A stretch of 64,000 nucleotides of DNA from Patescibacteria group bacterium. GTDB taxonomy: Bacteria; Patescibacteriota; Patescibacteriia; GWA2-46-9. The notes under the pieces were generated by a model. The model was not told the DNA's origin. It searched no databases and worked only from the letters and a program-made list of their open reading frames with translations. This document shows positions 683 through 45,875 of this stretch, in pieces; the first letter of the stretch is position 1, and every line of letters begins with the position of its first letter. The DNA lies in contig JBAZXG010000004.1 of the NCBI GenBank assembly GCA_041660005.1, positions 5,720 through 69,719 on the forward strand, read 5' to 3'. Made by a program: the position numbers and the translations under genes.

Positions 683-1369
683 TTAGGGATGCAAAACCGT
701 ACCCGTAAACGATTTACCTTCAATGATTCTTTTTACGTTACCAATTTGCCGGCCATTTAAAATATAAACCGAAATGCCTAATTTTTTTGCAAGCGCCGCA
801 GCTGTCGGGTCAAACGGGGTACTCAAGCGCGGCGACCATTTTGTTCCAATTATTTTTAAATAGTTTGACCAATTCATTTCGTGAATCGGTTTTGCCTTTT
901 TGTCTATCTTCGGATCAGCGGTGTATACCTGTTTAATATTGGAGAGGTTAATAATTTCCTTTGACCCAACTTTTTTAGCCCAGAGTACTGAATCCCAGTC
1001 CGAAGAATGACCTTCCTCAAAGGCTGCACCCATAATTATTTTTTCTCGTGGTATGACCTTTAATTTTTCAGGGTTTAAAATAATTTTTTTATGCGCTAAA
1101 GGCCCAAACATTGTACGCACAAGTTCTGCGTTCAAGGTCAGCGAACGAATGCCAATCCAATCCAAGTCATACGCTGTTGGTACACCGAGAATTTTTGCCG
1201 CTTCATTATATTGTCGATTCGTTCCTCCCCCACCACAACTAATGGCAAAACGCCGAGATTTAAAAGAGATAATGAGCTCCTTAAATTTTTTTAGAAATGC
1301 AATGTCGATCTCATCAGGAACAATAATTGAGCCCCCAAGCGAAAGTATGGTCCATGATGTTTTTGGCAT
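683..1369 (-). CDS. pyrH: UMP kinase, archaeal-type (amino-acid kinase family).
   Basis: ILSLGGSIIVPDEIDIAFLK, VYTADPKIDKKAKPI and a C-terminal GTVLHP closely follow the archaeal UMPK pattern (GGS rather than the bacterial LSGE). Length 228 aa. Confidence 0.7.
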   Translation of the reverse strand: MPKTSWTILSLGGSIIVPDEIDIAFLKKFKELIISFKSRRFAISCGGGGTNRQYNEAAKILGVPTAYDLDWIGIRSLTLNAELVRTMFGPLAHKKIILNPEKLKVIPREKIIMGAAFEEGHSSDWDSVLWAKKVGSKEIINLSNIKQVYTADPKIDKKAKPIHEMNWSNYLKIIGTKWSPRLSTPFDPTAAALAKKLGISVYILNGRQIGNVKRIIEGKSFTGTVLHP

Positions 1370-1371
1370 AG

Positions 1372-2448
1372 CTACTTGGTTAGGTAAAGACGCTTACTCT
1401 GCAAATGCGTTTCGTAATCCTTGGCAAAATGCGTATGCCCGTCTTTATCGGTCAAGAAGTACCAGTAGTCGTTGGTGTCCGGAAAAATCGCTGCTTTGAT
1501 AGCGTTAAGCCCTGGGTTACTAATCGGACCCGGTGGCAAACCTGGGTGTACATAGGTGTTATACAGGGATTGGTTTTTTAAATCTTCAGATGTCAATTGT
1601 GGTTTTTTGTCCCCGACCGCAAGTACATAGTTCAATGTGGCGTCGGATTGCAGTAATTCCCCGCTATTGAGACGCTTATAAATGACGTCGGCCGCTATTG
1701 GTAGGTCAGCGGCGTCACGAATTTCCTTTTCAAGAATGCTCGCTATGGTCAATGTTGTAAAAATACTTTGCCCACGTTTTGTAATAGCTTCGCGCAAGTC
1801 CGGTGTTAATTTTCTGTCGAGCGTTATCAGCATCTTTTGCGCTATTTCGTCCGCTGAAGCGCCCTTAAAAATGCGATAACTATCAGGGAATAAATAACCC
1901 TCGAGCGAAGCACTGTCGGGCTTATCAGCCAAAACAGAAACTGCCTGGTGGTCTGCCAGACGCGCTAAGGCCTGCTTGAAGTCAGCTCGAGAGACGATGC
2001 CATGCTGTTCAAGATAACTGGCAATGTCGTCAATCGTCCAACCTTCAATAACGGTAATAGTGCGCTCATTAGCTGCGTCCATACCGCTCGCTAAAATTTG
2101 CGCGAGCTCCCGAATGTTCAAATCGAATCCTAACGTATATTCTCCCGCTTGCAGACTGCGCGACCATCCTCGAAGCCACACGTAAACCTCAAATGTACGC
2201 GGACTCACGATGAGCCCCTTTGATTGAAGGTCTCTACTAATATCTCCCAGACTTTCATTTTTTAGAACGCTAAAAGTAACGGGCGCAGCGTCGCCACCCG
2301 GAGAGCGAACAATGCCGCCAGCAAAGCTCCCCAAGTAAAGTAGCAACGAAAACACTAAACCACCAACCACAAGAAAAAAAACGGAAAAAGCACGAGATGA
2401 CATTGTATTTTTAAACGCTAGTCGTTTCCAAGGTAACGTTCGACACAA
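1372..2448 (-). CDS. mltG: Endolytic murein transglycosylase MltG/YceG. The true start may be the internal MSSRAF Met at about 2403.
   Basis: N-terminal TM anchor and YceG-like motifs (ASILEKE, LQSDATLNYVL). Confidence 0.8.
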   Translation of the reverse strand: MCRTLPWKRLAFKNTMSSRAFSVFFLVVGGLVFSLLLYLGSFAGGIVRSPGGDAAPVTFSVLKNESLGDISRDLQSKGLIVSPRTFEVYVWLRGWSRSLQAGEYTLGFDLNIRELAQILASGMDAANERTITVIEGWTIDDIASYLEQHGIVSRADFKQALARLADHQAVSVLADKPDSASLEGYLFPDSYRIFKGASADEIAQKMLITLDRKLTPDLREAITKRGQSIFTTLTIASILEKEIRDAADLPIAADVIYKRLNSGELLQSDATLNYVLAVGDKKPQLTSEDLKNQSLYNTYVHPGLPPGPISNPGLNAIKAAIFPDTNDYWYFLTDKDGHTHFAKDYETHLQSKRLYLTK

Positions 2449-2972
2449 TGCAGCACGGCAATCTGATTCAGTGCCTGAATGGTTCCACTTTTAACGAGCT
2501 CAACTAATTCTTCTTTGGAAACCAGCACTGTCTCCGTTTGCTCGCGCGATCTAAATTCGGGGGCAGTTACCCGCTCGGCGTTGATGGCAGCATAGACATG
2601 CAGCTTGGCAGATGATGCGCTTACATCCACGTCAAGAACCGCAACTTCTTCCATTTTCTCTGAAGAGTAACCGGTCTCTTCAAGCAATTCGCGGCGTGCC
2701 GCTTCTGCGGTATTAATATCATGCCGGTCTACGAAACCGCCGGGAAACTCTGTGGTAACTCGACCAACGGCATGTCGATACTGGTGCACCAACAGAACCT
2801 GGTTTTCTTTGGTCAAGCAAAAAATGATAACGCCATCGGGTTGTTCACGAACAAAATAATCCTGAATAATCGTGCCGTCAGGAAGCTGGCAGACATCTTT
2901 ACGAACTTTGTAGCGTTCGGTATCCAAAATGGTTTCCGATTGCAGTGTTTTCCACGGTTTAATATCTGGCAT
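2418..2972 (-). CDS. NUDIX hydrolase (ADP-ribose pyrophosphatase-like).
   Basis: Nudix box GGFVDRHDINTAEAARRELLEETGY (G-x5-E-x7-REuxEExGu). Confidence 0.8.
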   Translation of the reverse strand: MPDIKPWKTLQSETILDTERYKVRKDVCQLPDGTIIQDYFVREQPDGVIIFCLTKENQVLLVHQYRHAVGRVTTEFPGGFVDRHDINTAEAARRELLEETGYSSEKMEEVAVLDVDVSASSAKLHVYAAINAERVTAPEFRSREQTETVLVSKEELVELVKSGTIQALNQIAVLHCVERYLGND

Positions 2973-3024
2973 AGAATCAATAGCAACGTAGCGGACTCAA
3001 CACATACTGTCAACGTATCCCGTT

Positions 3025-3948
3025 TTAAACCGGTATATCGTAAATAACATTTTTTCGCTCAACCACAACGCGCCACTTTCTCTTTTTTGCTTCGGCGTAG
3101 AGGCCTGCCGTAGGATTAAAAGCAATTGCGTGGTCAACCAACTCGAGAAAACTGACGTCTGTTTCTGTGTCGCCTACTCCCCATGAGTCGTTGAACGATA
3201 AACCTTTCTCGGCAACAAAACTTTGCACAATTTCCGCCTTACTATCAACCGAACGGCGATCCAATATGCGCCCCGTGTAAACCCCCTTATTATCTACCTC
3301 GTATTCTGTCCCCCAGATGTAATCAAAGCCAAAATAAGCACCAAAGGGTCTTACCATTTCTGAGGGAGACCCGGAAACAGCCAAAAGTATATATTCACTG
3401 GCTAGTGTTTTTAAAAGATCACGGGTAAAGCGATAGACGCGGTCGCGACGCTGCAACAGAACAAGATTCACCGCAGCATCTACATACTTGCGCTCCTTGC
3501 CTTGCATGGCTTTCAAGTGCATTTCAACAACGCTACGAATGTAGTCATCGTAACTACCCCTCCGCTCAACCCAGGCAAAGTAAGCATCGAGTATCTGACC
3601 AAGAACGGACTCTGGAATAATGCCCGAACGCATCAGTCCCTTGTTAAATTCAACCAGTAAACTCGATCGAAAAACCGTTCCGTCAATATCGAAAATCGCT
3701 ATTTTATTTTTGCCAACACTTCGTCGGCTTGCCGCGAGGTTACCATATACTGAGGCAAAAATATCCCGCGTAGCTCCTTGACCGTCCGTAGCCCTAGGCG
3801 AAGGAGGTCCTTGACCCGCCGCATGCTTACTATGTCCCGCCGTAGTTTTATACGTAGGGGGAGCGAAGGAGGTTAGCGAAGTGGGATTACCCATGCATAC
3901 CCCGTCCACCCTGGGACGGGTTAGTTGACTTCTTTTATCTTCATGCAT
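3025..3948 (-). CDS. HAD-superfamily hydrolase (HAD-IB, phosphoserine-phosphatase-like). The start is uncertain because the N-terminus is low complexity.
   Basis: Motif I IAIFDIDGTV and a C-terminal GDTETDVSFLELVDHAIAFNP (HAD motif IV). Confidence 0.6.
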   Translation of the reverse strand: MHEDKRSQLTRPRVDGVCMGNPTSLTSFAPPTYKTTAGHSKHAAGQGPPSPRATDGQGATRDIFASVYGNLAASRRSVGKNKIAIFDIDGTVFRSSLLVEFNKGLMRSGIIPESVLGQILDAYFAWVERRGSYDDYIRSVVEMHLKAMQGKERKYVDAAVNLVLLQRRDRVYRFTRDLLKTLASEYILLAVSGSPSEMVRPFGAYFGFDYIWGTEYEVDNKGVYTGRILDRRSVDSKAEIVQSFVAEKGLSFNDSWGVGDTETDVSFLELVDHAIAFNPTAGLYAEAKKRKWRVVVERKNVIYDIPV

Positions 3949-3957
3949 ACTTGCACT

Positions 3958-4809
3958 CTACGCCTGGCAAAAAGAACAGTAAACCGTTCCGCGCCCGTTC
4001 TCCCGACTGCGCGTGAGGGACTTACCACATCGACGACACGGTTTGCCACCTCTGCCGTAGACGTTAAGGTAAGGCACAAATGAACTGTCTTTAGCATCCG
4101 TTTTTTGGTAGGTACTGCGAGTCGTTCCGCGATGCTTCACCGCCTGGATGAGCACACTACGAATTGCTTGATAGAGTCGTCGTCGTTCTAGGTTGGAGAA
4201 CGTGGGCAGTTTACGACCAGGACGAACGCCCGCACGAAAGCACGATTCGTCAACATAAATATTGCCAAGACCCGCCACGAATGTTTGGTTCAACAAAAAA
4301 CTTTTAACCGTCCCCGATCGTCGCTGAGTCATCCGTTCAAAAACCTGAAACGTAAACGAGCGAGACAACGGCTCAATACCTATTTTTTCAGTCAACTTTT
4401 TTGATGCGTCTTCGGTATACAGTCGAGCATACCCAAATTGCCGTACGTCGTTTACATAAAGCTCGTCCCCGCCGGCAAATCGCAGCGTAAGATGCGTGTA
4501 CTTGTTGGGTAATGCGGTTAATCCAGGCACTGCATGTCCGCCAAAAATAATTAACTTCTTATGGCGAAGAACAACCTGTCCGGTCATCTTAAGATGCACA
4601 TGCAAAGCACTTTTATTATCAAAAACAAAAACGAGTAACTTACCATACCGCTTTATACTGACGATCCGACGGCTTACAATTTTTTTAGCAAATCCCTTTT
4701 TGGGAGAAACAAACTTCGGTAAACCTATAACCACTTTTTTAACGCGCGCATCAATTAAATAGCGAGACAAATCTTTTCGCAAAGTCTCAACCTCGGGTAA
4801 TTCTGGCAT
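3958..4809 (-). CDS. mutM: Formamidopyrimidine-DNA glycosylase.
   Basis: Canonical MPELPEVE N-terminus (catalytic Pro2 and Glu3) and a C-terminal CxxC...CxxC zinc finger (CRRCG...CSFCQ). Confidence 0.9.
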   Translation of the reverse strand: MPELPEVETLRKDLSRYLIDARVKKVVIGLPKFVSPKKGFAKKIVSRRIVSIKRYGKLLVFVFDNKSALHVHLKMTGQVVLRHKKLIIFGGHAVPGLTALPNKYTHLTLRFAGGDELYVNDVRQFGYARLYTEDASKKLTEKIGIEPLSRSFTFQVFERMTQRRSGTVKSFLLNQTFVAGLGNIYVDESCFRAGVRPGRKLPTFSNLERRRLYQAIRSVLIQAVKHRGTTRSTYQKTDAKDSSFVPYLNVYGRGGKPCRRCGKSLTRSRENGRGTVYCSFCQA

Positions 4810-4850
4810 GGCAAAGTCTGTTCTAAATCTCGTGGTACCCGTTCTGAATA

Positions 4851-6407
4851 TTACAATTCTTGAAGTAGTGAGTGTCCGATCATGGCCGCTGGCTGCCTAA
4901 TATCAAGTAACGCCAATAGCGTAGGGGCAACATCACCCAGAACGCCGCCCTCAGCCAGCTTCTTTCCCTGCATGGACTTTCCGTAACAGCGAATAATAAG
5001 TGGCACCGGTGAAGCGGTATGTTTTGTAAGAATTGCCCCGTCAGTGGTGAGCATGCACTCAGCATTGCCATGATCCGCCGTAATCACTAGTGTTCCCTGA
5101 CGTGCTTCGAGCGCCTCATTGATGCGACCAAGGCAGCGATCAACCTCTTCAATGCCAACAATTGCCGCCGCAATATCCCCAGTGTGACCGAGCATGTCGG
5201 GATTCGCAAAGTTAACGACGATAACATCAAACTGCTGCTTTTGAAGCGCAGCTACGACAACATCGGTCACCGCAGACGCCGCCATCAGCGGGCGCTTTGC
5301 ATAACGAACGACATCGGGCGACAAAACTCGCTCCTGTGTTTCTCCGGCAACTTGGCCGGGATGACCACCGTTAAAAAAATATGTTACGTGCGCGAATTTT
5401 TCGCTCTCGCCAACATACAACTGACGAAGACCAGAAAGAAGCATAGGAAAAGTCTCTGTCACTTGAATCTCAGAGTATGCAGGAATAGCGCCTGGAAGCG
5501 ATGGACCATAATCAACAAGTGTTACGAAGCAGAGATCATGAAATGTACGCACAGCAAAAGCATCTTGATTGCCCTGTTCAAAATCAGTCTCTAAAAAGGC
5601 CTTACAAAGCTCGCGCGCTCGGTCAGGACGAAAATTGAAAAAAATAATCGCATCCCCGTCCTGAATACGCCCTTCCTCACCATTACCGTCGCTGTCAATA
5701 ATGGTCGGTGTTATAAACTCATCAGTTTCACCGCGCTTATAAGCCGCACGAAGACCCTGCAGAGCTTGAGACGCCCGCTCTCCTTCACCCAGAACAAGCG
5801 CATTGTATGCATGTTTAATTTGTTTCCAATCTTTTTTTCGATCCATGGCGTAAGCCCGACCAATAATGGTCACCACTTTTTCATGCGGTTGAAGCGAATC
5901 CACCAATACTTTAAGAAGACGCTCGCCATCGGTCGGCGAAGAATCACGCCCATCGGTAAACAAATGCAGGTATACATTTTGAATGCTTTGCTCTTTGCAA
6001 AAACGACGGAGTGCTGCCAAATGTTCAGGATTACTATGCGGACTGTCCGCTGTCGAAAGCAAACCCATAAGGTGCACTCGCCCGTTCCCCTTTTTGGCAT
6101 GCTCGGCTGCTTTTAAAAAAGCTGCATTGTTGAAAAAATTACCCTCTTGAATATCACGACTGATACGGCGTACCTGCTGCTCGACAATTCTGCCAGCACC
6201 AAGGTTCATGTGTCCGGCTTCAGAGTTTCCTGCTTCGCCGTCAAGGAGGCCCACCGCGGCACCTGAAGCCGCAAGTGCGGTCGTGACACCGTTTAGACTT
6301 ATGGCGTCAATGTTCGGCTTTTTGGCGCGTGCCACCGCATTGCCTTCGTTGTCCGAAGCAATACCATACCCATCTAAAATTGCGAGCACGAGTGGTGAGG
6401 TGTTCAT
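4851..6407 (-). CDS. gpmI: 2,3-bisphosphoglycerate-independent phosphoglycerate mutase.
   Basis: 518 aa. N-terminus LVLAILDGYG; iPGM metalloenzyme domain pattern throughout. Confidence 0.85.
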   Translation of the reverse strand: MNTSPLVLAILDGYGIASDNEGNAVARAKKPNIDAISLNGVTTALAASGAAVGLLDGEAGNSEAGHMNLGAGRIVEQQVRRISRDIQEGNFFNNAAFLKAAEHAKKGNGRVHLMGLLSTADSPHSNPEHLAALRRFCKEQSIQNVYLHLFTDGRDSSPTDGERLLKVLVDSLQPHEKVVTIIGRAYAMDRKKDWKQIKHAYNALVLGEGERASQALQGLRAAYKRGETDEFITPTIIDSDGNGEEGRIQDGDAIIFFNFRPDRARELCKAFLETDFEQGNQDAFAVRTFHDLCFVTLVDYGPSLPGAIPAYSEIQVTETFPMLLSGLRQLYVGESEKFAHVTYFFNGGHPGQVAGETQERVLSPDVVRYAKRPLMAASAVTDVVVAALQKQQFDVIVVNFANPDMLGHTGDIAAAIVGIEEVDRCLGRINEALEARQGTLVITADHGNAECMLTTDGAILTKHTASPVPLIIRCYGKSMQGKKLAEGGVLGDVAPTLLALLDIRQPAAMIGHSLLQEL

Positions 6408-8958: not shown

Positions 8959-9975
8959 GCGAATTGTTTTACCCACTAGCTCCGCCATTTCAACTAAACG
9001 ATTTACGTAGCCCCACTCATTGTCATACCAAGCAATGACTTTGAGTAGGTCGCCGTCAACTACCATGGTAAGTCCAAGATCAACAATAGCCGAATGACTA
9101 TTGCCCACAATATTTGAAGAGACTAACGCCTCATCAGTTACCGCCAGAATACCTTTCCAGCGTTCTTGCTCTGCTGCTTTACGAAAGGCTTCATTCACTT
9201 CTTCTTTAGTTGTAGGTCTATTCAATAAAAACGTAAAATCAGTGAGTGAACCGACAGGAAGCGGCACACGCAATGCTAGGCCGTCAAATTTTCCCTTGAG
9301 TTCTGGAATAACTTCGGTAGTCGAAACAGCAGCGCCAGTAGTTGTCGGTATGATATTAATAGCCGCCGCACGAGCTCTGCGAAGATCTTTGTGGAGGGGT
9401 GGAGTGGAACCGTCAACCAAGTTTTGTTCTGCGGTATAGGAATGCACCGTCGTTATAACCGCCTTTTTGATACCAAAAACATCCTCAATAACAGTGGTCA
9501 CTGGCGCAACGCAATTTGTGGTACATGACGCATTGGAAACAATGGCGTCACCGCTGTACGTTTCATCATTGACTCCCAAAAGATAGGTTTTGGTATCGCC
9601 CCCCTTGGTTGGCGCAGAAACGACAACACGCTTTGCCCCGGCTGCTAAGTGCGCTTTGGCTGCATCGTCACGCGTGAAACGACCAGTACACTCAAGAACT
9701 ATATCAATCCCTAATTCTTTCCAGGGCAATTTCGCAGGATCTTTCTCGGTAAAAACTTTGCACGGAACACCATCGACAACAATTTCATTTTCATTAAAAC
9801 TTACCGAAAATGGTGCCTTACCGTAAACAGAGTCATATTTCAATAAATGCGCATGCGTTTCCGTGTCCGTTGTATCGTTAATCGCAACAATATTCAGACC
9901 TTTATTACCATGTGCAACGCGAAACGCAGCACGACCTACTCGACCAAACCCGTTAATGGCAACCTTTAGAGCCAT
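8956..9975 (-). CDS. gap: Glyceraldehyde-3-phosphate dehydrogenase.
   Basis: INGFGRVGR Rossmann motif; ASCTTNCVAPV active-site Cys motif. Confidence 0.95.
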   Translation of the reverse strand: MALKVAINGFGRVGRAAFRVAHGNKGLNIVAINDTTDTETHAHLLKYDSVYGKAPFSVSFNENEIVVDGVPCKVFTEKDPAKLPWKELGIDIVLECTGRFTRDDAAKAHLAAGAKRVVVSAPTKGGDTKTYLLGVNDETYSGDAIVSNASCTTNCVAPVTTVIEDVFGIKKAVITTVHSYTAEQNLVDGSTPPLHKDLRRARAAAINIIPTTTGAAVSTTEVIPELKGKFDGLALRVPLPVGSLTDFTFLLNRPTTKEEVNEAFRKAAEQERWKGILAVTDEALVSSNIVGNSHSAIVDLGLTMVVDGDLLKVIAWYDNEWGYVNRLVEMAELVGKTIR

Positions 9976-25439: not shown

Positions 25440-25505
25440 CTTTTCTTTTGTTTATTCGGGTGGGACCTTGTTTAAACAGGGGCTCGTACCACTTAATGAA
25501 ACACT

Positions 25506-26189
25506 ATGCCAAAACAAGGCAAACGACATGCGGCCAACACGGCCAAAGTAGAAAAACGGCTTTACACGCCGACAGAAGCTATTGCTCTATTGAAAGAGCT
25601 CAGGCACGCAAAATTCTCTGAATCAGTTGAGCTTCATCTGCGGCTCGGCATTGACCCTAAACAGGGCGAACAGCAAGTCCGCGGAACGCTGACGCTCCCC
25701 CACGGCACCGGCAAGACAAAGAAAGTCGCCGTATTTGCTGAGGGTGAAGCCGAAATGGAGGCAAAAAAAGCTGGCGCTGACATTGTTGGCGGCAAAGAAC
25801 TTATTGATAAAATTCGTACCTCGGGAAAGTGTGAGTTCGATGTTGCGGTTGCGACCCCGGACATGATGGTGAACCTCGCCGGTATTGCAAAAATTCTTGG
25901 ACCCCGCGGTCTCATGCCGTCACCAAAAAACGAAACCGTAACAAAAAATGTGGCAAAAGCTGTAGCGGAACTTAGGAAAGGAAAAATTACTTTCAAAAAT
26001 GACGACACTTCTAATTTGCACCAAGCAATTGGAAAAATAGACCAGCCAGCAAACGAAATACTGGAAAACTTACAGACCTTGCTCGATGCTGTTCGTCGCG
26101 CAAAACCAGCTTCTTCAAAAGGTGTCTACATCAAAGGAGCAACACTGACGACTACCATGGGACCTGGTCTGCAGCTCTCGCTGAGCTAA
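25506..26189 (+). CDS. rplA: 50S ribosomal protein L1.
   Basis: 227 aa; L1 pattern (DPKQGEQQVRGTLTLPHGTGK). Confidence 0.9.
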   Translation: MPKQGKRHAANTAKVEKRLYTPTEAIALLKELRHAKFSESVELHLRLGIDPKQGEQQVRGTLTLPHGTGKTKKVAVFAEGEAEMEAKKAGADIVGGKELIDKIRTSGKCEFDVAVATPDMMVNLAGIAKILGPRGLMPSPKNETVTKNVAKAVAELRKGKITFKNDDTSNLHQAIGKIDQPANEILENLQTLLDAVRRAKPASSKGVYIKGATLTTTMGPGLQLSLS

Positions 26190-39374: not shown

Positions 39375-41183
39375 TTAATTATGACGAGTTTTGATTTGTT
39401 CTTTCATCCGGTGAACAAAATCACCAAGCGTAATTACCAGTAATTCCTTTTCGCCTCGTAAACGAACTGCCAGCATAGTATTGTCTGACCATGAACCATT
39501 TTCCGGAATCTCTTTGTCGCCAATGACAAGAGCATAGGGTAACTTTTCCCCCGCAGCTTTGCGAATTTTATTACCAACCGTATCTCCGGTCTCGTCCACG
39601 CTTACGCGTACTCCTTTTGCTTCAAGGTCGCGAGCAAGATTTCGCGCTGCGACAAGATGGCTCTCCCCAACAGGAACAATGCCGACCTGCACTGGTGAGA
39701 GCCAAACGGGAAACGCGCCAGCAAAGTGTTCAATGATGATACCGATGAAGCGTTCCATTGAACCGTAGATGACTCGATGAATGGCGACAGGTATCTGTTT
39801 CTTACCTTCTGCGTCAGTATAGTGAAGATTAAAACGGCGCGGCTGTTGAAAGTCTAATTGAATTGTTCCCATTTGCCACTCTCTTCCAAGAATATCTCGC
39901 ATGAGAATATCAATCTTCGGACCATAGAATGCACCGTCCCCCTCAAGAACAATGAACGACTTACCACTATCAACCAATATCTTCTTAAGAGCTGCCTCAG
40001 CTTGATCCCAGGTTGCGACGTCGCCCATAAACTTTTCAGGACGGGTGCCCAGTCGGTATGAATATTCAAGACCAAATATTGAGTAAAAACGATCAACAAT
40101 GCTCATCACTTCGGCAAATTCTGCAGCAATCATGTCTTCTGATACAAAAATATGCGCGTCATCCTGTCGAAATTCACGCACGCGCAATAAACCATTCAGC
40201 GTGCCAGAAAGTTCATTACGATGCAAAGTGTCCGTGTCAGACAGACGGAGAGGCAAGTCGCGATAGCTATGCCCACGCGAACCAAAGACCACCATAGCAT
40301 TCGGACAATTCATGGCCTTAACACCGTATTCTTCACCTTCATCAGTTTTAGCAACAAACATATCACTCCAGTAGTGCTCGTAGTGCCCAGAGATTTCGTA
40401 AAGCTCTCGCTTGTTCAGCATTGGCGAAACGATTTCTTGATATCCGCGCCGACGATGCTCTTCTCTCCAAAACTGAACCAGCTCATTATAGACAATCACT
40501 CCTTTCGGTAACCAGTACGGCATGCCGGGAGCTGTTTCGTGAAACATGAAGAGATCAAGTTCTTGACCTAATTTTCGATGATCCCGCTTTTTTGCCTCTT
40601 CGACCATCGTCAAATACTGAGATAACTCTCGCGCAGTCAGGAATGCCACACCGTACACACGCTGCAGCATCTTATTCTTCTCGCTCCCCCGCCAATAAGC
40701 GCCGGCTAGTTTCGTCAGGGTAAAAGCGCCAATGTCGTGAGTCGTTTTAACGTGCGGCCCTCTGCAAAGGTCAACGAACTTTCCGGTTTCGTAAACCGAG
40801 GTGATTTCTTTAGCGCTCGGATCAATATCGAACACAGCGTCCGGGTCAACTTTGGTCGTGCCTTTGTCTCGGAGCGCCTCAAGTAATTCAACTTTATATG
40901 GCTGATTCCGTTCACCAAAAAATGCAATGGCCTCGGCAATCGACATTTCTTTGCGAATGTATGCTTCTCCCCTTTTCTGAATTTCCCGCATTGTCGCTTC
41001 TATTTTTGGAAAGTCTTCAAACGAAAGCGAGACCGGCAAATCAACATCATAATAAAATCCATTCTCAACAACGGGGCCAACGCCAAACTTTGCCTCCGGA
41101 TAAAGTTCCTGGAGAGCTGCCGCAAGTAAATGCGCGGTGGAGTGTCGCATAGTGTCTACTGCCGATAATTCTTGTTTAGACAT
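39375..41183 (-). CDS. thrS: Threonyl-tRNA synthetase, lacking the N-terminal TGS domain.
   Basis: Starts in the N2/editing domain (HSTAHLLAAALQELYPE...GPVVENGFYYDVDLP), then the class II core and the anticodon-binding domain. 602 aa. Confidence 0.9.
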   Translation of the reverse strand: MSKQELSAVDTMRHSTAHLLAAALQELYPEAKFGVGPVVENGFYYDVDLPVSLSFEDFPKIEATMREIQKRGEAYIRKEMSIAEAIAFFGERNQPYKVELLEALRDKGTTKVDPDAVFDIDPSAKEITSVYETGKFVDLCRGPHVKTTHDIGAFTLTKLAGAYWRGSEKNKMLQRVYGVAFLTARELSQYLTMVEEAKKRDHRKLGQELDLFMFHETAPGMPYWLPKGVIVYNELVQFWREEHRRRGYQEIVSPMLNKRELYEISGHYEHYWSDMFVAKTDEGEEYGVKAMNCPNAMVVFGSRGHSYRDLPLRLSDTDTLHRNELSGTLNGLLRVREFRQDDAHIFVSEDMIAAEFAEVMSIVDRFYSIFGLEYSYRLGTRPEKFMGDVATWDQAEAALKKILVDSGKSFIVLEGDGAFYGPKIDILMRDILGREWQMGTIQLDFQQPRRFNLHYTDAEGKKQIPVAIHRVIYGSMERFIGIIIEHFAGAFPVWLSPVQVGIVPVGESHLVAARNLARDLEAKGVRVSVDETGDTVGNKIRKAAGEKLPYALVIGDKEIPENGSWSDNTMLAVRLRGEKELLVITLGDFVHRMKEQIKTRHN

Positions 41184-41220
41184 ATATTTGTAATACGCCG
41201 TAAGCTTTACGCTATACGTA

Positions 41221-41256
41221 AAAATAAAAAACCCAAAACCAAATAATGGCCTTGGG
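41221..41256 (-). terminator. Intrinsic terminator inside the thrS leader (the attenuator).
   Basis: 10-bp stem with two G-U pairs, a UUAUU loop, and a U-tract of at least 11 of 12 nt. Confidence 0.65.
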
Positions 41257-41460
41257 GTCCTAACATCGTGTCAGGACGGTTCCACCCAAATTCCCTGCTG
41301 TAGGCACCCTAAGTAAAATCGAAGGGCTACCCCTAGCCAGGCACTCAATAATCTGTCTCTGGGCTTAGTCCTGATAAGGAACACCGAATTCGATGTACGG
41401 TCGTGGTAAGACCGTCAATTACCCAAGGAAACTATACTTCCAAAGGAGAAAAAGCGTCAA
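41221..41460 (-). promoter_or_regulatory. T-box riboswitch-like leader of thrS. A promoter, a stem-I-like region, the antiterminator with the canonical 7-nt UGGAACC bulge, and a competing intrinsic terminator.
   Basis: Read on the minus strand: promoter TTGACG-18-TATAGT at plus 41431-41460. T-box-like sequence AAUUUGGGUGGAACCGUC at plus 41275-41292, against the consensus AAUUAGGGUGGUACCGCG. Antiterminator A1 is UUUGGG pairing with CCCAAG, the bulge is UGGAACC, and A2 is GUCCUGACA/UGUUAGGAC. The terminator is CCCAAGGCCA-UUAUU-UGGUUUUGGG followed by UUUUUUAUUUUU, 39 nt before the thrS ATG. A conserved AGAGA element and a hairpin with loop UUACCAC (Thr codon ACC plus A) occur upstream. Confidence 0.6.
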
Positions 41461-41461
41461 G

Positions 41462-42583
41462 TTATTCAAAACGAACCTGAATTTTGTTAGGTAACCGGGG
41501 TAAGTGCTTTTGCCAGTAGGGCGTCAGCTCGACATTTACGCTGTCAACACCTTCGAAGTTCATTAAAAACTGTTTCACCTCGTTCGGCGTAGCGCCAACA
41601 AAATTAATTGGAGAAAATACGGAACTGGTTGTATCAAGATTTGCTCCGACCTTCGCGCGTCCGCTCACTACAGCCGTTCTCGCCACGGGGTCATAATTAT
41701 CAATTGCATAGTGCCACTCGGTGTCGCTGACCGTCACGCCACTACCTGCTGTCTCTTTAACTCTTTCTTTCAATGCATTCTTACTAAATGCCGCTGCAAT
41801 AACTTTCACTTTCATGGAAACAGTAAGGGCTGCTGCCTTCTCCCCAACTTTACTCGAATCTGTCTCCTGAATGACTTGCGTTATAAAGTCGGCGTCGGTA
41901 AGGTCCCCGCTTGCCACTTGGGCAACATCAGCACTTTTCACGGCGTCAATGGCACGACTGAGTAAGGTTTGCTTTGCGTTCTCTAAATCCTGCTCACTAA
42001 CTGCCCGCACTGCCGCCCCACCTCGAGCCATGGCGCTATTTGACGTCGCATAAATCGAATTCTGTAAACTTGCAGAAAGACCGGGTATAGTAAAGCGGCT
42101 CGGACCAATGAGGAAGCTATCGTCAGTTCCATCTGCTTCTACAACTGCAGTCACTTCACCTTTGGCAGGAACTCGGACCGCCTGCTTTAACCGAAAAAGT
42201 ATGTTATCAGCTGTGAGCAAACGTGTAGTTTCAACAAGCGGCTGCGGCCTGTCGGTAGTGTTGGTAATAGTTACAACGCCACCGGCCTTCGCTGTTGCCT
42301 CAGTACCACCAGGCAGCAGAAAAGTGTCAGAAACGTCTTGTGTGGTTTCTAAAAAGGTAGCAGGTATGTTTTTACTGGGTATGTTTTGTCCAATGGTTTC
42401 TTCGGCTAATATGGCCTTGTAAACCACTTCTCGCTCGACCGCATGACGTCGAACAACCACAACCGCATGGGATAAAGTCGTATAAGCAATAAACAGCAAC
42501 AACAAAACCGTCAGCACGACGAAAGTGATGGCGATGTTTCTCAAAACTTTTGCTTTGTCCGGCATCAAATCAAATTCCCCCAT
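41462..42583 (-). CDS. Hypothetical membrane-anchored protein with a large extracytoplasmic domain, possibly with YbbR-like repeats.
   Basis: Single N-terminal TM (IAITFVVLTVLLLLFIAYTTL); repetitive beta-rich sequence; no diagnostic motif. Confidence 0.4.
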   Translation of the reverse strand: MGEFDLMPDKAKVLRNIAITFVVLTVLLLLFIAYTTLSHAVVVVRRHAVEREVVYKAILAEETIGQNIPSKNIPATFLETTQDVSDTFLLPGGTEATAKAGGVVTITNTTDRPQPLVETTRLLTADNILFRLKQAVRVPAKGEVTAVVEADGTDDSFLIGPSRFTIPGLSASLQNSIYATSNSAMARGGAAVRAVSEQDLENAKQTLLSRAIDAVKSADVAQVASGDLTDADFITQVIQETDSSKVGEKAAALTVSMKVKVIAAAFSKNALKERVKETAGSGVTVSDTEWHYAIDNYDPVARTAVVSGRAKVGANLDTTSSVFSPINFVGATPNEVKQFLMNFEGVDSVNVELTPYWQKHLPRLPNKIQVRFE

Positions 42584-42629: not shown

Positions 42630-45600
42630 TCAAGACTCTGCTTCTGGCTCCCGACGCCGAAACTGCAAGCGCTCCCAACGCTTCACAATGTCAGGTAGAC
42701 GCTGTGAATCTAAGGATTCAACAGCATCGGCAATAATCTGTATCTCGCCGTCCCTTTTTGATACCTTACCTGCCAAAAGCACGACATTGTCCGGCTCCCA
42801 AACAACTGGGTTCTTTTGATAAGTACTCGGAAATACAATGATTTCTGCACTGGTTTTTGCGTCAGAAACTTTGACAAAACACATGGGGTCGCCCTTCTTG
42901 GTCGTAATGCGTCGCACGGTCTCTATGACAACCCCGACACCAATAACGTCATCACTGCGATAATACTGTAAATGATCAAGAGGAACCGTGAAAGGTAAAA
43001 TGGCAGCGGAAAACTCCTGCAGGGGATGCTCAGTTACATAAAGCCCCAGTAACTCTTTTTCCCAGGTTAAGCACTGCTTGGCATCAGCCGCAGGTACCTC
43101 TTCCAGCGTCAAAGCAGAAGGCGCATTCACACTTGCTCCAAACAAAGTCGCCTGCCGACTAGCAGCTTCCGAAATGGCAGCACGGTTATAACGTAACAAG
43201 TTTTCTGAACTGGCGAGCAAGCTTTGACGTTCGCCCCACTCGTCAAGGCAACCCGATTTAATAAGACTTTCTAAAAAGCGTTTATTGAAATTCTTCGTTT
43301 TCATTCTGAGCAAAAAATCTGCCAAAGAAACAAACGGCCCGTTTTTTTTACGCTCCTCAATCAAAGCATGGGCAACATCTTCGCCCACATTTTTAATGGC
43401 CAAAAGTCCAAAACGAATATGATTTTCATCTAACCAAGTAAAATGTTCATGACTCTCGTTGACATTCGGTGGTAACACATCAATACCCATACGACGGCAC
43501 TCCTCAACAATTTCAGAAACCTTATCAAGATTGTTACTCTCTGCCCTGAGGACAGCCGTCATGTAAGCGCAGGGATAATTTGCTTTCAAATACGCCGTTT
43601 GGTAGGCAACAATGCCGTAGCTCGCCGCGTGTGCTTTGTTAAAACCGTAAGCGGCAAATGGTTCAATGAGCTTCCACAGCTCCTCTGCTTTGGGGCCGGC
43701 GAGGTTACTGGTGCGCATACAACCGCTAATAAAGCGCTCTTTCTCGGCAGCCATTGCTTTAGGAATTTTCTTACCCATAGCTTTTCGCAGTGCATCAACC
43801 TCTTCCCAACTGTAACCCGCAATCTCGATGGCAATCAAAAGCACATCGTCTTGGTAGGTTACGATGCCGTACGATCGATCAAGAATCGACTTCAGTCGCG
43901 GGTCAAGATACTGTACGCGGCGAGGATTATTTTTTCGTTCAATATACTCAGGAATATTACTCATGGGGCCAGGCCGGAAAAGTGCCACCATGGCCATGAT
44001 GTGGTGAATAGTGGTGGGACGAAGATCCTTTAGGTAACGGGTCATGCCGGATCCGGAAAGCTGAAAGAGGCCTACGGTTTCGCCTCGTGCCAATAGTTCA
44101 TACGTTTTTTTGTCGTCCAAGGGCAGGTTATCTAAAAATATATCTACACTATATATTTTTTTAATGAGCTTTACGGCACTACCTAAAATAGACAGGTTGC
44201 GGATGCCCAAAAAATCCATCTTCAGCACGCCAATATCCTCGACAGCGTGCATTTCATATTGGGTAATGATTTTTTCCCCACCAGCTTCACGCTGCAGTGG
44301 CATGTAGTCAACGAGCGGCCCTGGGGTAATCACGACACCTGCAGCATGAACTGAAGCGTGGCGCACACATCCTTCTACCTTGCGAGCGAGGTCGAGAAGC
44401 CGATTAACTTCCGGGTCAGTATCGTACATTTTCTTTAACTCCGGTTCTATGTCGAGGGCGTGGTCAATAGACATAGGAAAGCCCTGCGAACCGAAAGGAA
44501 TTGTTTTTGCCACCTTATCGCACAAAGAGTAAGCGTAACCCAGCACGCGTCCGATATCGCGCACTGCCGCCCGGGCTTGCAACGTTCCAAAGGTAACGAT
44601 TTGCGCAACCCTATCTTCACCGTATTTTTCTTTAACATAAGCGATAACCTCATCTCTTCGATCATCGGCAAAGTCCATATCGATGTCTGGTGGGGTCGGC
44701 CGCCATTCATTTAAAAACCGTTCAAATGGAAGCCGATAGGTCAACGGGTCAACCGTAGTAATACCTAAACTAAAAGCAACGAGAGACCCTGCGGCAGATC
44801 CGCGGGTTGTTGCCACAATCCCCTGCGCCCGCGACCAGTTAGCAAAATCAGCCACAACCAGAAAATACGTGGCGTATCCTTTTTTCTTAATAATATGCAA
44901 CTCATACTGAAGCCGCTCTTCAGCTTCAGAAGAAATTTCTCCAAATCGCTCCCGCAATCCCTGATAAGCGCTCTCCTCAAGGTACTCATCAGCGGTTTTT
45001 CCGGCAGGAATCTCAAACTGCGGGAATATCCAAGTACCTAACGTGAGTTCAACATTACAACGGTCGGCTATTTCAGCAGTGCGCAAAACTGCATCATGAT
45101 CATCGGGAAACGCCTTCATCATTTCTTCTTCACTTGCAAAATGCAGGTCGGTGCCGGTCATGTTCAGTCGCTTGGTATCACTAATGAGCTTGCCGGTCTG
45201 TACGCAAACGAGAGCGTCCTGCGCTTCGGCGTCGTCCGTGTCGAGATAATGACTGTCTTTTGTTGCGACTAACTGCACACCGGTCTCCTTTGCTAAACGC
45301 CGCAAACCCGTGTTTGCTTTTGCTTGTTCGGCTAATAAGGGGTGGCTCTGTATCTCCAGGTAAAAATTATGTTCACCGAAAATTGATCGATAAACCTCCA
45401 CGGTATTTTTAGCTGCCTCGTAATCGTCGCGCAGCAACGCCTGAGAAACCTCTCCTCCCAAACAACCAGAGAGCGCGATAATTCCCTTTGCATACGTACG
45501 CAGCACCTCGCGGTCAACACGGGGCTTATAGTAAAAACCCTCCAAATGAGCAATGGTAACGAGCTTTAAAATATTATGATAACCCTCCAAATTCTCTGCC

Positions 45601-45875
45601 AGCAACGTTAAATGAAATGCACTGTCGTCAATGCGTGGCCGTTTATCGGAAAGACGATTCGGCGCCACATATGCTTCAACGCCAATAATGGGCTTGATAC
45701 CCGCCTTTTTGGCGGTCTTATAAAATTCAACAACGCCATACAAAACCCCATGATCAGTTATGGCTAAGGCGTCCATACCAAGTTTTTTTGCACGCGCAAC
45801 TAATTCTGGAATTTTCGGCAATCCATCAAGCAAGCTGTAATGACTGTGCGTGTGGAGATGAATAAACCGCGGCAT
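42630..45875 (-). CDS. dnaE: DNA polymerase III alpha subunit.
   Basis: PHP domain N-terminus (HLHTHSHYSLLDG...ITDHG), polymerase core and OB-fold. 1081 aa. Confidence 0.95.
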   Translation of the reverse strand: MPRFIHLHTHSHYSLLDGLPKIPELVARAKKLGMDALAITDHGVLYGVVEFYKTAKKAGIKPIIGVEAYVAPNRLSDKRPRIDDSAFHLTLLAENLEGYHNILKLVTIAHLEGFYYKPRVDREVLRTYAKGIIALSGCLGGEVSQALLRDDYEAAKNTVEVYRSIFGEHNFYLEIQSHPLLAEQAKANTGLRRLAKETGVQLVATKDSHYLDTDDAEAQDALVCVQTGKLISDTKRLNMTGTDLHFASEEEMMKAFPDDHDAVLRTAEIADRCNVELTLGTWIFPQFEIPAGKTADEYLEESAYQGLRERFGEISSEAEERLQYELHIIKKKGYATYFLVVADFANWSRAQGIVATTRGSAAGSLVAFSLGITTVDPLTYRLPFERFLNEWRPTPPDIDMDFADDRRDEVIAYVKEKYGEDRVAQIVTFGTLQARAAVRDIGRVLGYAYSLCDKVAKTIPFGSQGFPMSIDHALDIEPELKKMYDTDPEVNRLLDLARKVEGCVRHASVHAAGVVITPGPLVDYMPLQREAGGEKIITQYEMHAVEDIGVLKMDFLGIRNLSILGSAVKLIKKIYSVDIFLDNLPLDDKKTYELLARGETVGLFQLSGSGMTRYLKDLRPTTIHHIMAMVALFRPGPMSNIPEYIERKNNPRRVQYLDPRLKSILDRSYGIVTYQDDVLLIAIEIAGYSWEEVDALRKAMGKKIPKAMAAEKERFISGCMRTSNLAGPKAEELWKLIEPFAAYGFNKAHAASYGIVAYQTAYLKANYPCAYMTAVLRAESNNLDKVSEIVEECRRMGIDVLPPNVNESHEHFTWLDENHIRFGLLAIKNVGEDVAHALIEERKKNGPFVSLADFLLRMKTKNFNKRFLESLIKSGCLDEWGERQSLLASSENLLRYNRAAISEAASRQATLFGASVNAPSALTLEEVPAADAKQCLTWEKELLGLYVTEHPLQEFSAAILPFTVPLDHLQYYRSDDVIGVGVVIETVRRITTKKGDPMCFVKVSDAKTSAEIIVFPSTYQKNPVVWEPDNVVLLAGKVSKRDGEIQIIADAVESLDSQRLPDIVKRWERLQFRRREPEAES

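Follow-up and report, generated by a model that had tools for sequence, protein, structure and literature searches.

Whether T-box regulation extends into the Candidate Phyla Radiation (CPR), and with how little RNA a threonine codon can be presented to a tRNA there, are questions raised by the region upstream of the threonyl-tRNA synthetase gene thrS in a Patescibacteria group bacterium (GenBank assembly GCA_041660005.1, contig JBAZXG010000004.1, positions 5,720 to 69,719 of the forward strand). This stretch of 64,000 nucleotides is referred to below as the window and is numbered from its first letter; the leader, thrS and their elements lie on its minus strand. A reading of the letters, hereafter the original prediction, had proposed a T-box riboswitch-like attenuator between positions 41221 and 41460. 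The analysis described here leads to a similar view: with a probability of roughly 0.85, judged from sequence comparison, the leader is a T-box-family transcription attenuator that would sense tRNA-Thr through a minimal decoding domain.

The regulated gene (39375-41183, 602 aa) can be assigned to thrS because its product contains the Pfam domains tRNA-synt_2b, tRNA_SAD and HGTP_anticodon. The closest relatives of this ThrS are those of Patescibacteria/CPR metagenome-assembled genomes (MAGs), the best being 81% identical and from Candidatus Uhrbacteria, in keeping with the CPR-like host that had been suspected. The leader sits between thrS and an open reading frame (ORF) of 373 aa, and it begins with the predicted sigma-70-type promoter (41431-41460), in which TTGACG (41460-41455) and TATAGT (41436-41431) are separated by an 18-nt spacer. 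For comparison, thrS loci, the only loci surveyed, were drawn from genomes and metagenomes and supplemented by exact-protein look-ups; they are designated by L numbers. Six of them (L001, L083, L084, L162, L163 and L164), whose ThrS proteins are 65-81% identical to that of the window, form with it the window subgroup. Equally spaced TTGAC and TAnAnT boxes occur in L001, L083, L084, L162 and L163, each ending 5-8 nt before the first helix of the leader, P1, and transcription in the window would start near position 41424.

Discriminator domain and competing terminator

The 3' half of the leader opens with the purine string GAGUG (41342-41346), followed by Stem III (CCUGGCU...AGCAGGG, 41293-41341) and by AA. 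This arrangement matches the published RRRxG (RAG)-Stem III-AA motif (PMC7583486, PMC11297988): none of the seven subgroup leaders departs from R-A-G-x-G or from AA, 4 of the 7 pairs of Stem III (helix 5) have changed on both sides, and the Rfam T-box model RF00230 aligns its AGuG at GAGUG. Next comes the T-box string AAUUUGGGUGGAACCGUC (41292-41275), which, as predicted, agrees with the consensus at 14 of 18 positions. The AA, the 5' strand of helix A1 (UUUGGG) and the 7-nt bulge UGGAACC (41284-41278) together occupy 41278-41292 and are invariant in the subgroup. Helix A2, formed by GUCCUGACA and UGUUAGGAC around CGA (41257-41277), shows changes on both sides in 8 of its 9 pairs, and CCCAAG (41256-41251) supplies the 3' strand of A1. 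All the antiterminator parts that had been proposed are thus present, and the antiterminator covaries in CPR leaders; across CPR classes A1 takes forms such as GUCGAG/CUUGAC, GCGAGG/CCUUGC and GCUCGG/CCGAGC.

The same CCCAAG also starts an intrinsic terminator, a 10-bp stem of CCCAAGGCCA and UGGUUUUGGG (41256-41232) with the 12-nt U-tract UUUUUUAUUUUU (41231-41220). This terminator had been called perfect and placed 39 nt before the ATG; the stem and the U-tract are indeed there, but the stem contains two G.U pairs, the tract includes one A, and the measured distance is 36 nt. Since CCCAAG is shared, pairing in A1 and pairing in the terminator are mutually exclusive, as anticipated, with calculated energies of -48.2 kcal/mol for the terminator state and -38.4 kcal/mol for the antiterminator state. 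This difference of about 10 kcal/mol makes termination (OFF) the default, as in known T-boxes. The terminator overlaps A1 only, and the A2 hairpin is present in both states.

The variable base of the bulge is A in nearly all CPR leaders and G in two, L166 (UGGGACC at 9871-9877) and L148 (1400-1406), both of which keep the ACC specifier loop; it is never C or U. Such a distribution would fit a tRNA with discriminator base U73, with which both A and G can pair, the latter as G.U.

Stem III of the window carries a 35-nt tip extension with the loop UCGAUUUUACUU. The extension is shared only with L084 (1281-1329), the other five subgroup leaders having a plain Stem III of 4-6 bp. Between the window and L084 it shows the compensatory change CCCU/AGGG versus UCCU/AGGA, and both have a nearly identical 12-nt loop, UCGAUUUUACU(U/C), with a T-loop-like UUCGA. 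It may supply an extra tRNA contact.

Homology and covariation

Evidence for common descent was obtained with a covariance model, R2, built from the 3' domain of 17 CPR leaders (alignment A4) from which the window and its six close relatives had been left out. Applied to the 64-kb window with filters off, R2 gave a single strong match, at 41251-41353(-), with 33.2 bits and an E-value of 3.2e-7, the next match scoring 12.9 bits; it also detects the other unseeded subgroup members. From the 17 leaders of A4, RNAalifold predicted A1, A2 and the bulge of 7 nt between them, and compensatory changes affect 8 of the 10 pairs. RF00230, in turn, matches two CPR leaders of this seed end to end: L107 reaches 45.6 bits (E 2e-7), L044 40 bits (E 6e-6). 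Elements retained in both alignments are the purine string, the CGUUA of the F-box, Stem III, the T-box and the kink-turn (K-turn); the L107 alignment also keeps the Stem II S-turn. Some 72-76 model positions of Stem I are reduced to an end loop of 5-6 nt carrying ACC. Taken together, the unique R2 match and the RF00230 matches of seed members indicate that the 3' half of the window leader is homologous to T-box discriminators.

Within the subgroup, MAFFT alone misaligned the variable middle of the leader, and a structural alignment (A2) was therefore constructed manually, N standing for a gap. In alignment A2, 97.5% of cells are paired and 28 of 43 pairs have changed on both sides, counts that favour the proposed structure because the alignment was fitted to it; controls in which the partners were slid by 1-3 columns gave 33-52% paired cells and 0-4 pairs with two-sided change. 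Two independent checks agree with this structure: RNAalifold also predicts Stem I, A2 and the terminator when the MAFFT alignment is left unedited, and the same helices appear in the single-sequence minimum free energy (MFE) fold of the window. The 278-nt leader of the window folds better than 200 of 200 shuffles (z = -3.55), and a four-way junction, the terminator, the A2 hairpin and a long Stem III are all present in its MFE fold.

These results bear on one alternative, namely that the region is an ordinary intergenic structure in which the terminator of the 373-aa gene happens to stand beside T-box-like motifs, or else a threonine leader-peptide attenuator. Such a view would account for a strong intrinsic terminator 205-240 nt past the upstream stop codon, and patterns like GGTGGNACC are indeed expected by chance about twice per window. 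However, it is at odds with the conserved promoter that separates the upstream gene from the leader, with the E-value of the R2 match and with covariation in seven helices, and must be considered very improbable. As a candidate in its own right, leader-peptide attenuation was rejected, as the leader contains no ORF with a run of Thr codons and its sole ATG-initiated ORF has no such codons.

A putative minimal decoding domain

In the 5' part of the leader, GGGU (41421-41424) forms the 5' strand of P1 at the 5' end of the transcript and pairs with GCCC (41364-41361), thereby closing the four-way junction. P1 is seen in the single-sequence MFE fold; among the seven relatives, 89% of its cells are paired and 2 of 4 pairs have changed on both sides, the subgroup variants including GGGU/GCCC, AGGU/GCCU, UGGU/ACCA, UAGC/GCUG and UAGC/GCUA. 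At the base of Stem I stands AAUUGA (41415-41420), a K-turn-like 5' half (GA motif) whose UGA is invariant in alignment A2. AUUGA or GAUGA likewise opens the canonical K-turns of other CPR leaders. In the window the K-turn appears incomplete: this 5' half is kept, and where the canonical 3' GA and C-stem would stand there are UA, the two small hairpins, CUAA and P1.

Stem I itself (41397-41415) is an ultrashort hairpin of 6 bp, ACGGUC/GACCGU, with the end loop UUACCAC (41409-41403). In this loop lies the putative specifier ACC (41407-41405), a Thr codon, followed by A, just as the original prediction had it. Stem I is 100% paired in alignment A2, and 4 of 5 pairs have changed on both sides. 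The loop is nearly universal in CPR leaders: among non-redundant leaders representing all CPR classes, 27 of 28 have ACC followed by A or G in the loop that caps a hairpin with 4 bp or more, whereas dinucleotide shuffles lead one to expect 8.6, and the stem under this loop covaries. With C as the third base of the specifier, the codon also obeys the "C rule" (PMC7583486).

This loop bears on two further explanations. According to the first, the element is a relic or a repurposed T-box in which the discriminator and terminator survive while the truncated 5' domain no longer decodes, so that it acts as a constitutive or otherwise controlled attenuator, responding, for example, to any uncharged tRNA 3' end or to a protein. 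The state of the 5' domain lends itself to this idea, considering that the known elbow- and anticodon-clamping modules (the interdigitated T-loop motif, IDTM, as well as the S-turn and the pseudoknot) are all missing, that the K-turn is non-canonical and that reviews describe a long Stem I as a requirement of transcriptional T-boxes. Yet a domain that had ceased to decode would hardly be expected to keep ACC-purine end loops throughout very divergent CPR classes on covarying stems, or CUAA and UGA invariant at the junction. Because the loop is kept while its stem covaries, selection appears to act on the loop sequence, which makes a relic unlikely.

The second explanation is an operator of the E. 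coli thrS type, in which ThrRS would recognize structures in the thrS leader that imitate the anticodon arm of tRNA-Thr, and so repress expression. The regulated gene is the right one, and a hairpin with a 7-nt loop resembles an anticodon arm in shape; nevertheless, the loop holds the codon ACC, no 7-nt loop with GGU, UGU or CGU at the anticodon position is found, and the UGGAACC bulge, the covariation of A1 and A2 and the competition with the terminator would be left unexplained. An operator of this type has very little probability. Anticodon mimicry was also rejected on its own terms, as the loop corresponds to the codon and the leader has no anticodon-like loop.

The remaining arms of the junction are two small hairpins. 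Hairpin 2 (CAUCG/CGGUG with loop AAUU, 41382-41395; helix 3) is variable in sequence and absent in L083, and hairpin 3 (UCCU/AGGA with loop UAUC, 41369-41380; helix 4) may correspond by position to Stem IIA; each is 100% paired, and two-sided changes affect 5 of its 6 pairs. CUAA, invariant in 7/7 subgroup leaders, and the 3' strand of P1 (together 41361-41368) complete the junction. The poorly conserved linker AGAGACAGAUUAUU (41347-41360) that follows contains AGAGA (41360-41356), which had been taken for a conserved Stem I element. This assignment does not hold: AGAGA is part of the linker that follows P1, and L001 does not conserve it, so that it is no AG box of Stem I. The general layout of the subgroup is a promoter, P1, AAUUGA, a Stem I of 5-6 bp with the loop Y-Y-ACC-A-M, one or two small hairpins, CUAA, the 3' strand of P1, the linker and the discriminator.

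Missing modules and weak matches

Apart from the fitted nature of alignment A2 mentioned above, several observations weigh against a tRNA-Thr-sensing T-box. The significant RF00230 match on which the original prediction was staked did not materialize: at the gathering score (93 bits in the Rfam copy used) the window contains no match to the model, and a scan judged by E-value returns only a local one, of 9.2 bits (E 6.3), over model positions 155-216, which cover Stem III and the antiterminator. Model R1, which represents the K-turn and Stem I of 20 non-subgroup CPR leaders and has little power at 39 positions, finds no match at the specifier hairpin of the window, its top matches of about 12 bits lying elsewhere. 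The window lacks the distal platform of Stem I, in which an AG bulge and the distal loop form interdigitated T-loops for the tRNA elbow, and its junction hairpins show neither the S-turn of Stem II nor the IIA/B pseudoknot with its F-box CCGUUA. Inspection by eye revealed no consistent pairing between loops and linker in the junction. Stem II and the pseudoknot have been found essential when Stem I is short (PMC7583486). The basal pair of A2 is G-C in the window and in 5/7 of the subgroup, not the conserved G.U steric sensor; in other CPR classes it is G-C in 11/17 and G.U in 1/17. Finally, a search with ARAGORN for genes of tRNA-Thr came back empty for the window and for about 170 loci.

Some of these points are qualified by other observations. 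The RF00230 threshold is too blunt a test, since a full-length Clostridial thrS T-box (L071, 2698-2898) scores 85.8 bits and thus falls below the gathering score, as does a Chloroflexi one with 63.4 bits; a scan of the window and 17 loci at that score reported no T-box at all, Clostridia included. Both the S-turn of Stem II and the pseudoknot are optional in the T-box family, since glyQS leaders do without them, and among CPR leaders L107 has the two modules and L044 the pseudoknot.

Proposed mechanism

On the T-box interpretation, transcription would begin near 41424, and the first 65 nt or so would fold into the four-way junction of P1, Stem I and the two small hairpins. The end loop of the 6-bp Stem I would then offer ACC-A to the GGU anticodon of tRNA-Thr, and the discriminator, composed of GAGUG, Stem III, AA, A1, UGGAACC and A2, would check the tRNA's 3' end. 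With uncharged tRNA-Thr, UCCA is expected to pair with UGGA and to stabilize UUUGGG/CCCAAG; as long as CCCAAG is held in A1, the terminator would be blocked and RNA polymerase could continue into thrS. A charged tRNA would be unable to dock, in which case CCCAAGGCCA/UGGUUUUGGG and the U-tract would form and transcription would stop some 36 nt short of the ATG. Observed are the sequence elements with their covariation and conservation, the pairings that exclude one another, and the homology to T-box discriminators; binding of tRNA, sensing of its charging state and the regulatory outcome are deduced from them.

Comparison with known systems

The window leader shares several features with canonical transcriptional T-boxes of Firmicutes (RF00230), of which those of B. 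subtilis tyrS and thrS are examples, including the 7-nt UGGNACC bulge between A1 and A2, the RRRxG-Stem III-AA arrangement, a terminator competing for the 3' strand of A1, control of an aminoacyl-tRNA synthetase gene, and a cognate specifier codon with C as its third base and a purine after it. Clostridial thrS leaders also carry UGGAACC. In contrast to the canonical elements, the window has a short Stem I whose specifier lies in the end loop rather than in a side bulge, lacks the IDTM, the S-turn of Stem II and the IIA/B pseudoknot, and shows, in place of the K-turn's 3' half, a four-way junction that is closed by the helix at the 5' terminus. Its basal A2 pair is G-C as opposed to G.U, its terminator overlaps A1 but not A2, and RF00230 gives it 9.2 bits, versus 85.8 bits for the Clostridial thrS leader.

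As far as they are described in PMC7583486, which cites Sherwood et al. 2015, the actinobacterial ileS T-boxes (M. tuberculosis, M. smegmatis, N. farcinica) are similar in having a short Stem I, an end-loop specifier and no elbow platform. However, they hide the Shine-Dalgarno sequence (translational control) and sense Ile (AUC), whereas the window would sense Thr (ACC) by means of a terminator 36 nt upstream of the ATG, and the Stem II and pseudoknot essential to them are absent from the window subgroup, which has two small hairpins and P1 instead. The glyQS T-box (B. subtilis, O. iheyensis, G. kaustophilus) is likewise transcriptional and naturally devoid of Stem II and the IIA/B pseudoknot, but its Stem I remains long and keeps the K-turn and the elbow platform, and it relies on a G+C-rich GGC specifier, in contrast to the 6-bp Stem I and ACC of the window. 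Hence, of the proposal that the leader is a reduced, glyQS-like or ultrashort variant, the reduced form stands, being borne out by the ultrashort Stem I, the terminator and homologous CPR thrS leaders, while the likeness to glyQS has to be given up. The E. coli thrS translational operator also exerts feedback on thrS through a 5' leader, but it is protein-bound and translational and uses anticodon-like loops, whereas the window has a codon loop and an antiterminator/terminator pair.

According to reviews, ultrashort Stem I elements belong to translational T-boxes, mostly actinobacterial ileS leaders, which rely on Stem II and the pseudoknot (PMC7583486, PMC11297988), and terminator-type T-boxes are held to need a long Stem I with an elbow platform for fast tRNA capture (PMC7583486). 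The combination of an ultrashort Stem I with a terminator in CPR thrS leaders challenges the rule that ties terminators to a long Stem I, and the window subgroup additionally drops Stem II and the pseudoknot. A bolder proposal, which could equally well prove right or wrong, is that CPR bacteria harbour an undescribed lineage of transcriptional T-boxes that recognize tRNA co-transcriptionally without elbow contact, the codon being displayed by a hairpin's end loop within a four-way junction of 65 nt that the 5' end of the transcript closes. This would be the smallest natural terminator-type decoding module known and would contradict the long-Stem-I rule; in some members the extended Stem III with its T-loop-like tip may compensate for what is lost. 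If functional, the element would represent a natural minimal tRNA-decoding module, and the related CPR leaders a stepwise reduction series for structural and kinetic work.

Distribution among CPR bacteria

The string GTGGAACC precedes about one-quarter of the CPR thrS loci sampled, and a hairpin and a T-run follow it in nearly every leader examined, being weak or absent in a few (e.g., L153, L166 and L168). The window element belongs to a wider and apparently undescribed family of CPR thrS T-boxes with stepwise loss of modules: full-text searches of the library consulted found no paper linking T-boxes with CPR or Patescibacteria, and the TBDB paper does not mention CPR. Within this reduction series, an ultrashort Stem I is common to all. 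Stem II is present in L107, L141, L144 and L048 and absent from L044, and L002, L056, L102 and L167 have no evident Stem III. The range of T-boxes would thereby extend to Patescibacteria, in line with T-boxes having arisen early among the Gram-positive and Chloroflexi-related phyla. Default Rfam annotation misses both the CPR elements and genuine T-boxes in MAGs.

No second T-box was found in the window. Matches to GGTGGNACC at 25458, 27918 and 52468 are without other T-box elements and occur at about the chance rate. One of these sites, GGGTGGGACC at 25458-25467 (+), lies 48 nt upstream of rplA (25506-26189, Pfam Ribosomal_L1), with no A1, A2 or terminator context; it is probably a chance match, although it could conceivably be an L1 autoregulatory site. 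The pheST genes, located upstream, have no such leader. Two scans of viral contigs, in which the discriminator base of the T-box string was allowed to vary, yielded about 200 mostly chance matches and one ordinary T-box (L304), and no CPR leaders for other amino acids.

Genomic setting

The ORF directly upstream of thrS (41462-42583, minus strand, 373 aa) has no confident Pfam match. Genes are arranged as pheS-pheT-(small ORFs)-dnaE-(ORF of 373-384 aa)-thrS in the window, L164 and L169, and the short contig L162 shows part of this conserved order. The corresponding ORFs lie at 8611-9741 in L164, 1528-2667 in L162 and 8681-9835 in L169, the last with a weak Baseplate_J match only. ARAGORN detected no tRNA genes of any kind in the window, while tRNA-Val(GAC/CAC), sometimes with tRNA-Leu, occurs within about 1 kb upstream of thrS in L007, L013, L089, L100, L104, L106 and L166-L168.

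Between the U-tract and the thrS ATG (41184-41219, minus strand) there is no obvious Shine-Dalgarno sequence, and a 5-bp hairpin, CGUAA/UUACG with the loop AGC, occupies part of this interval. Further upstream, dnaE of the window (42630-45875) has no intein; in L169, the relative from Candidatus Uhrbacteria, dnaE (1019-5818) contains an intein with a LAGLIDADG endonuclease domain, and its product has 1599 aa.

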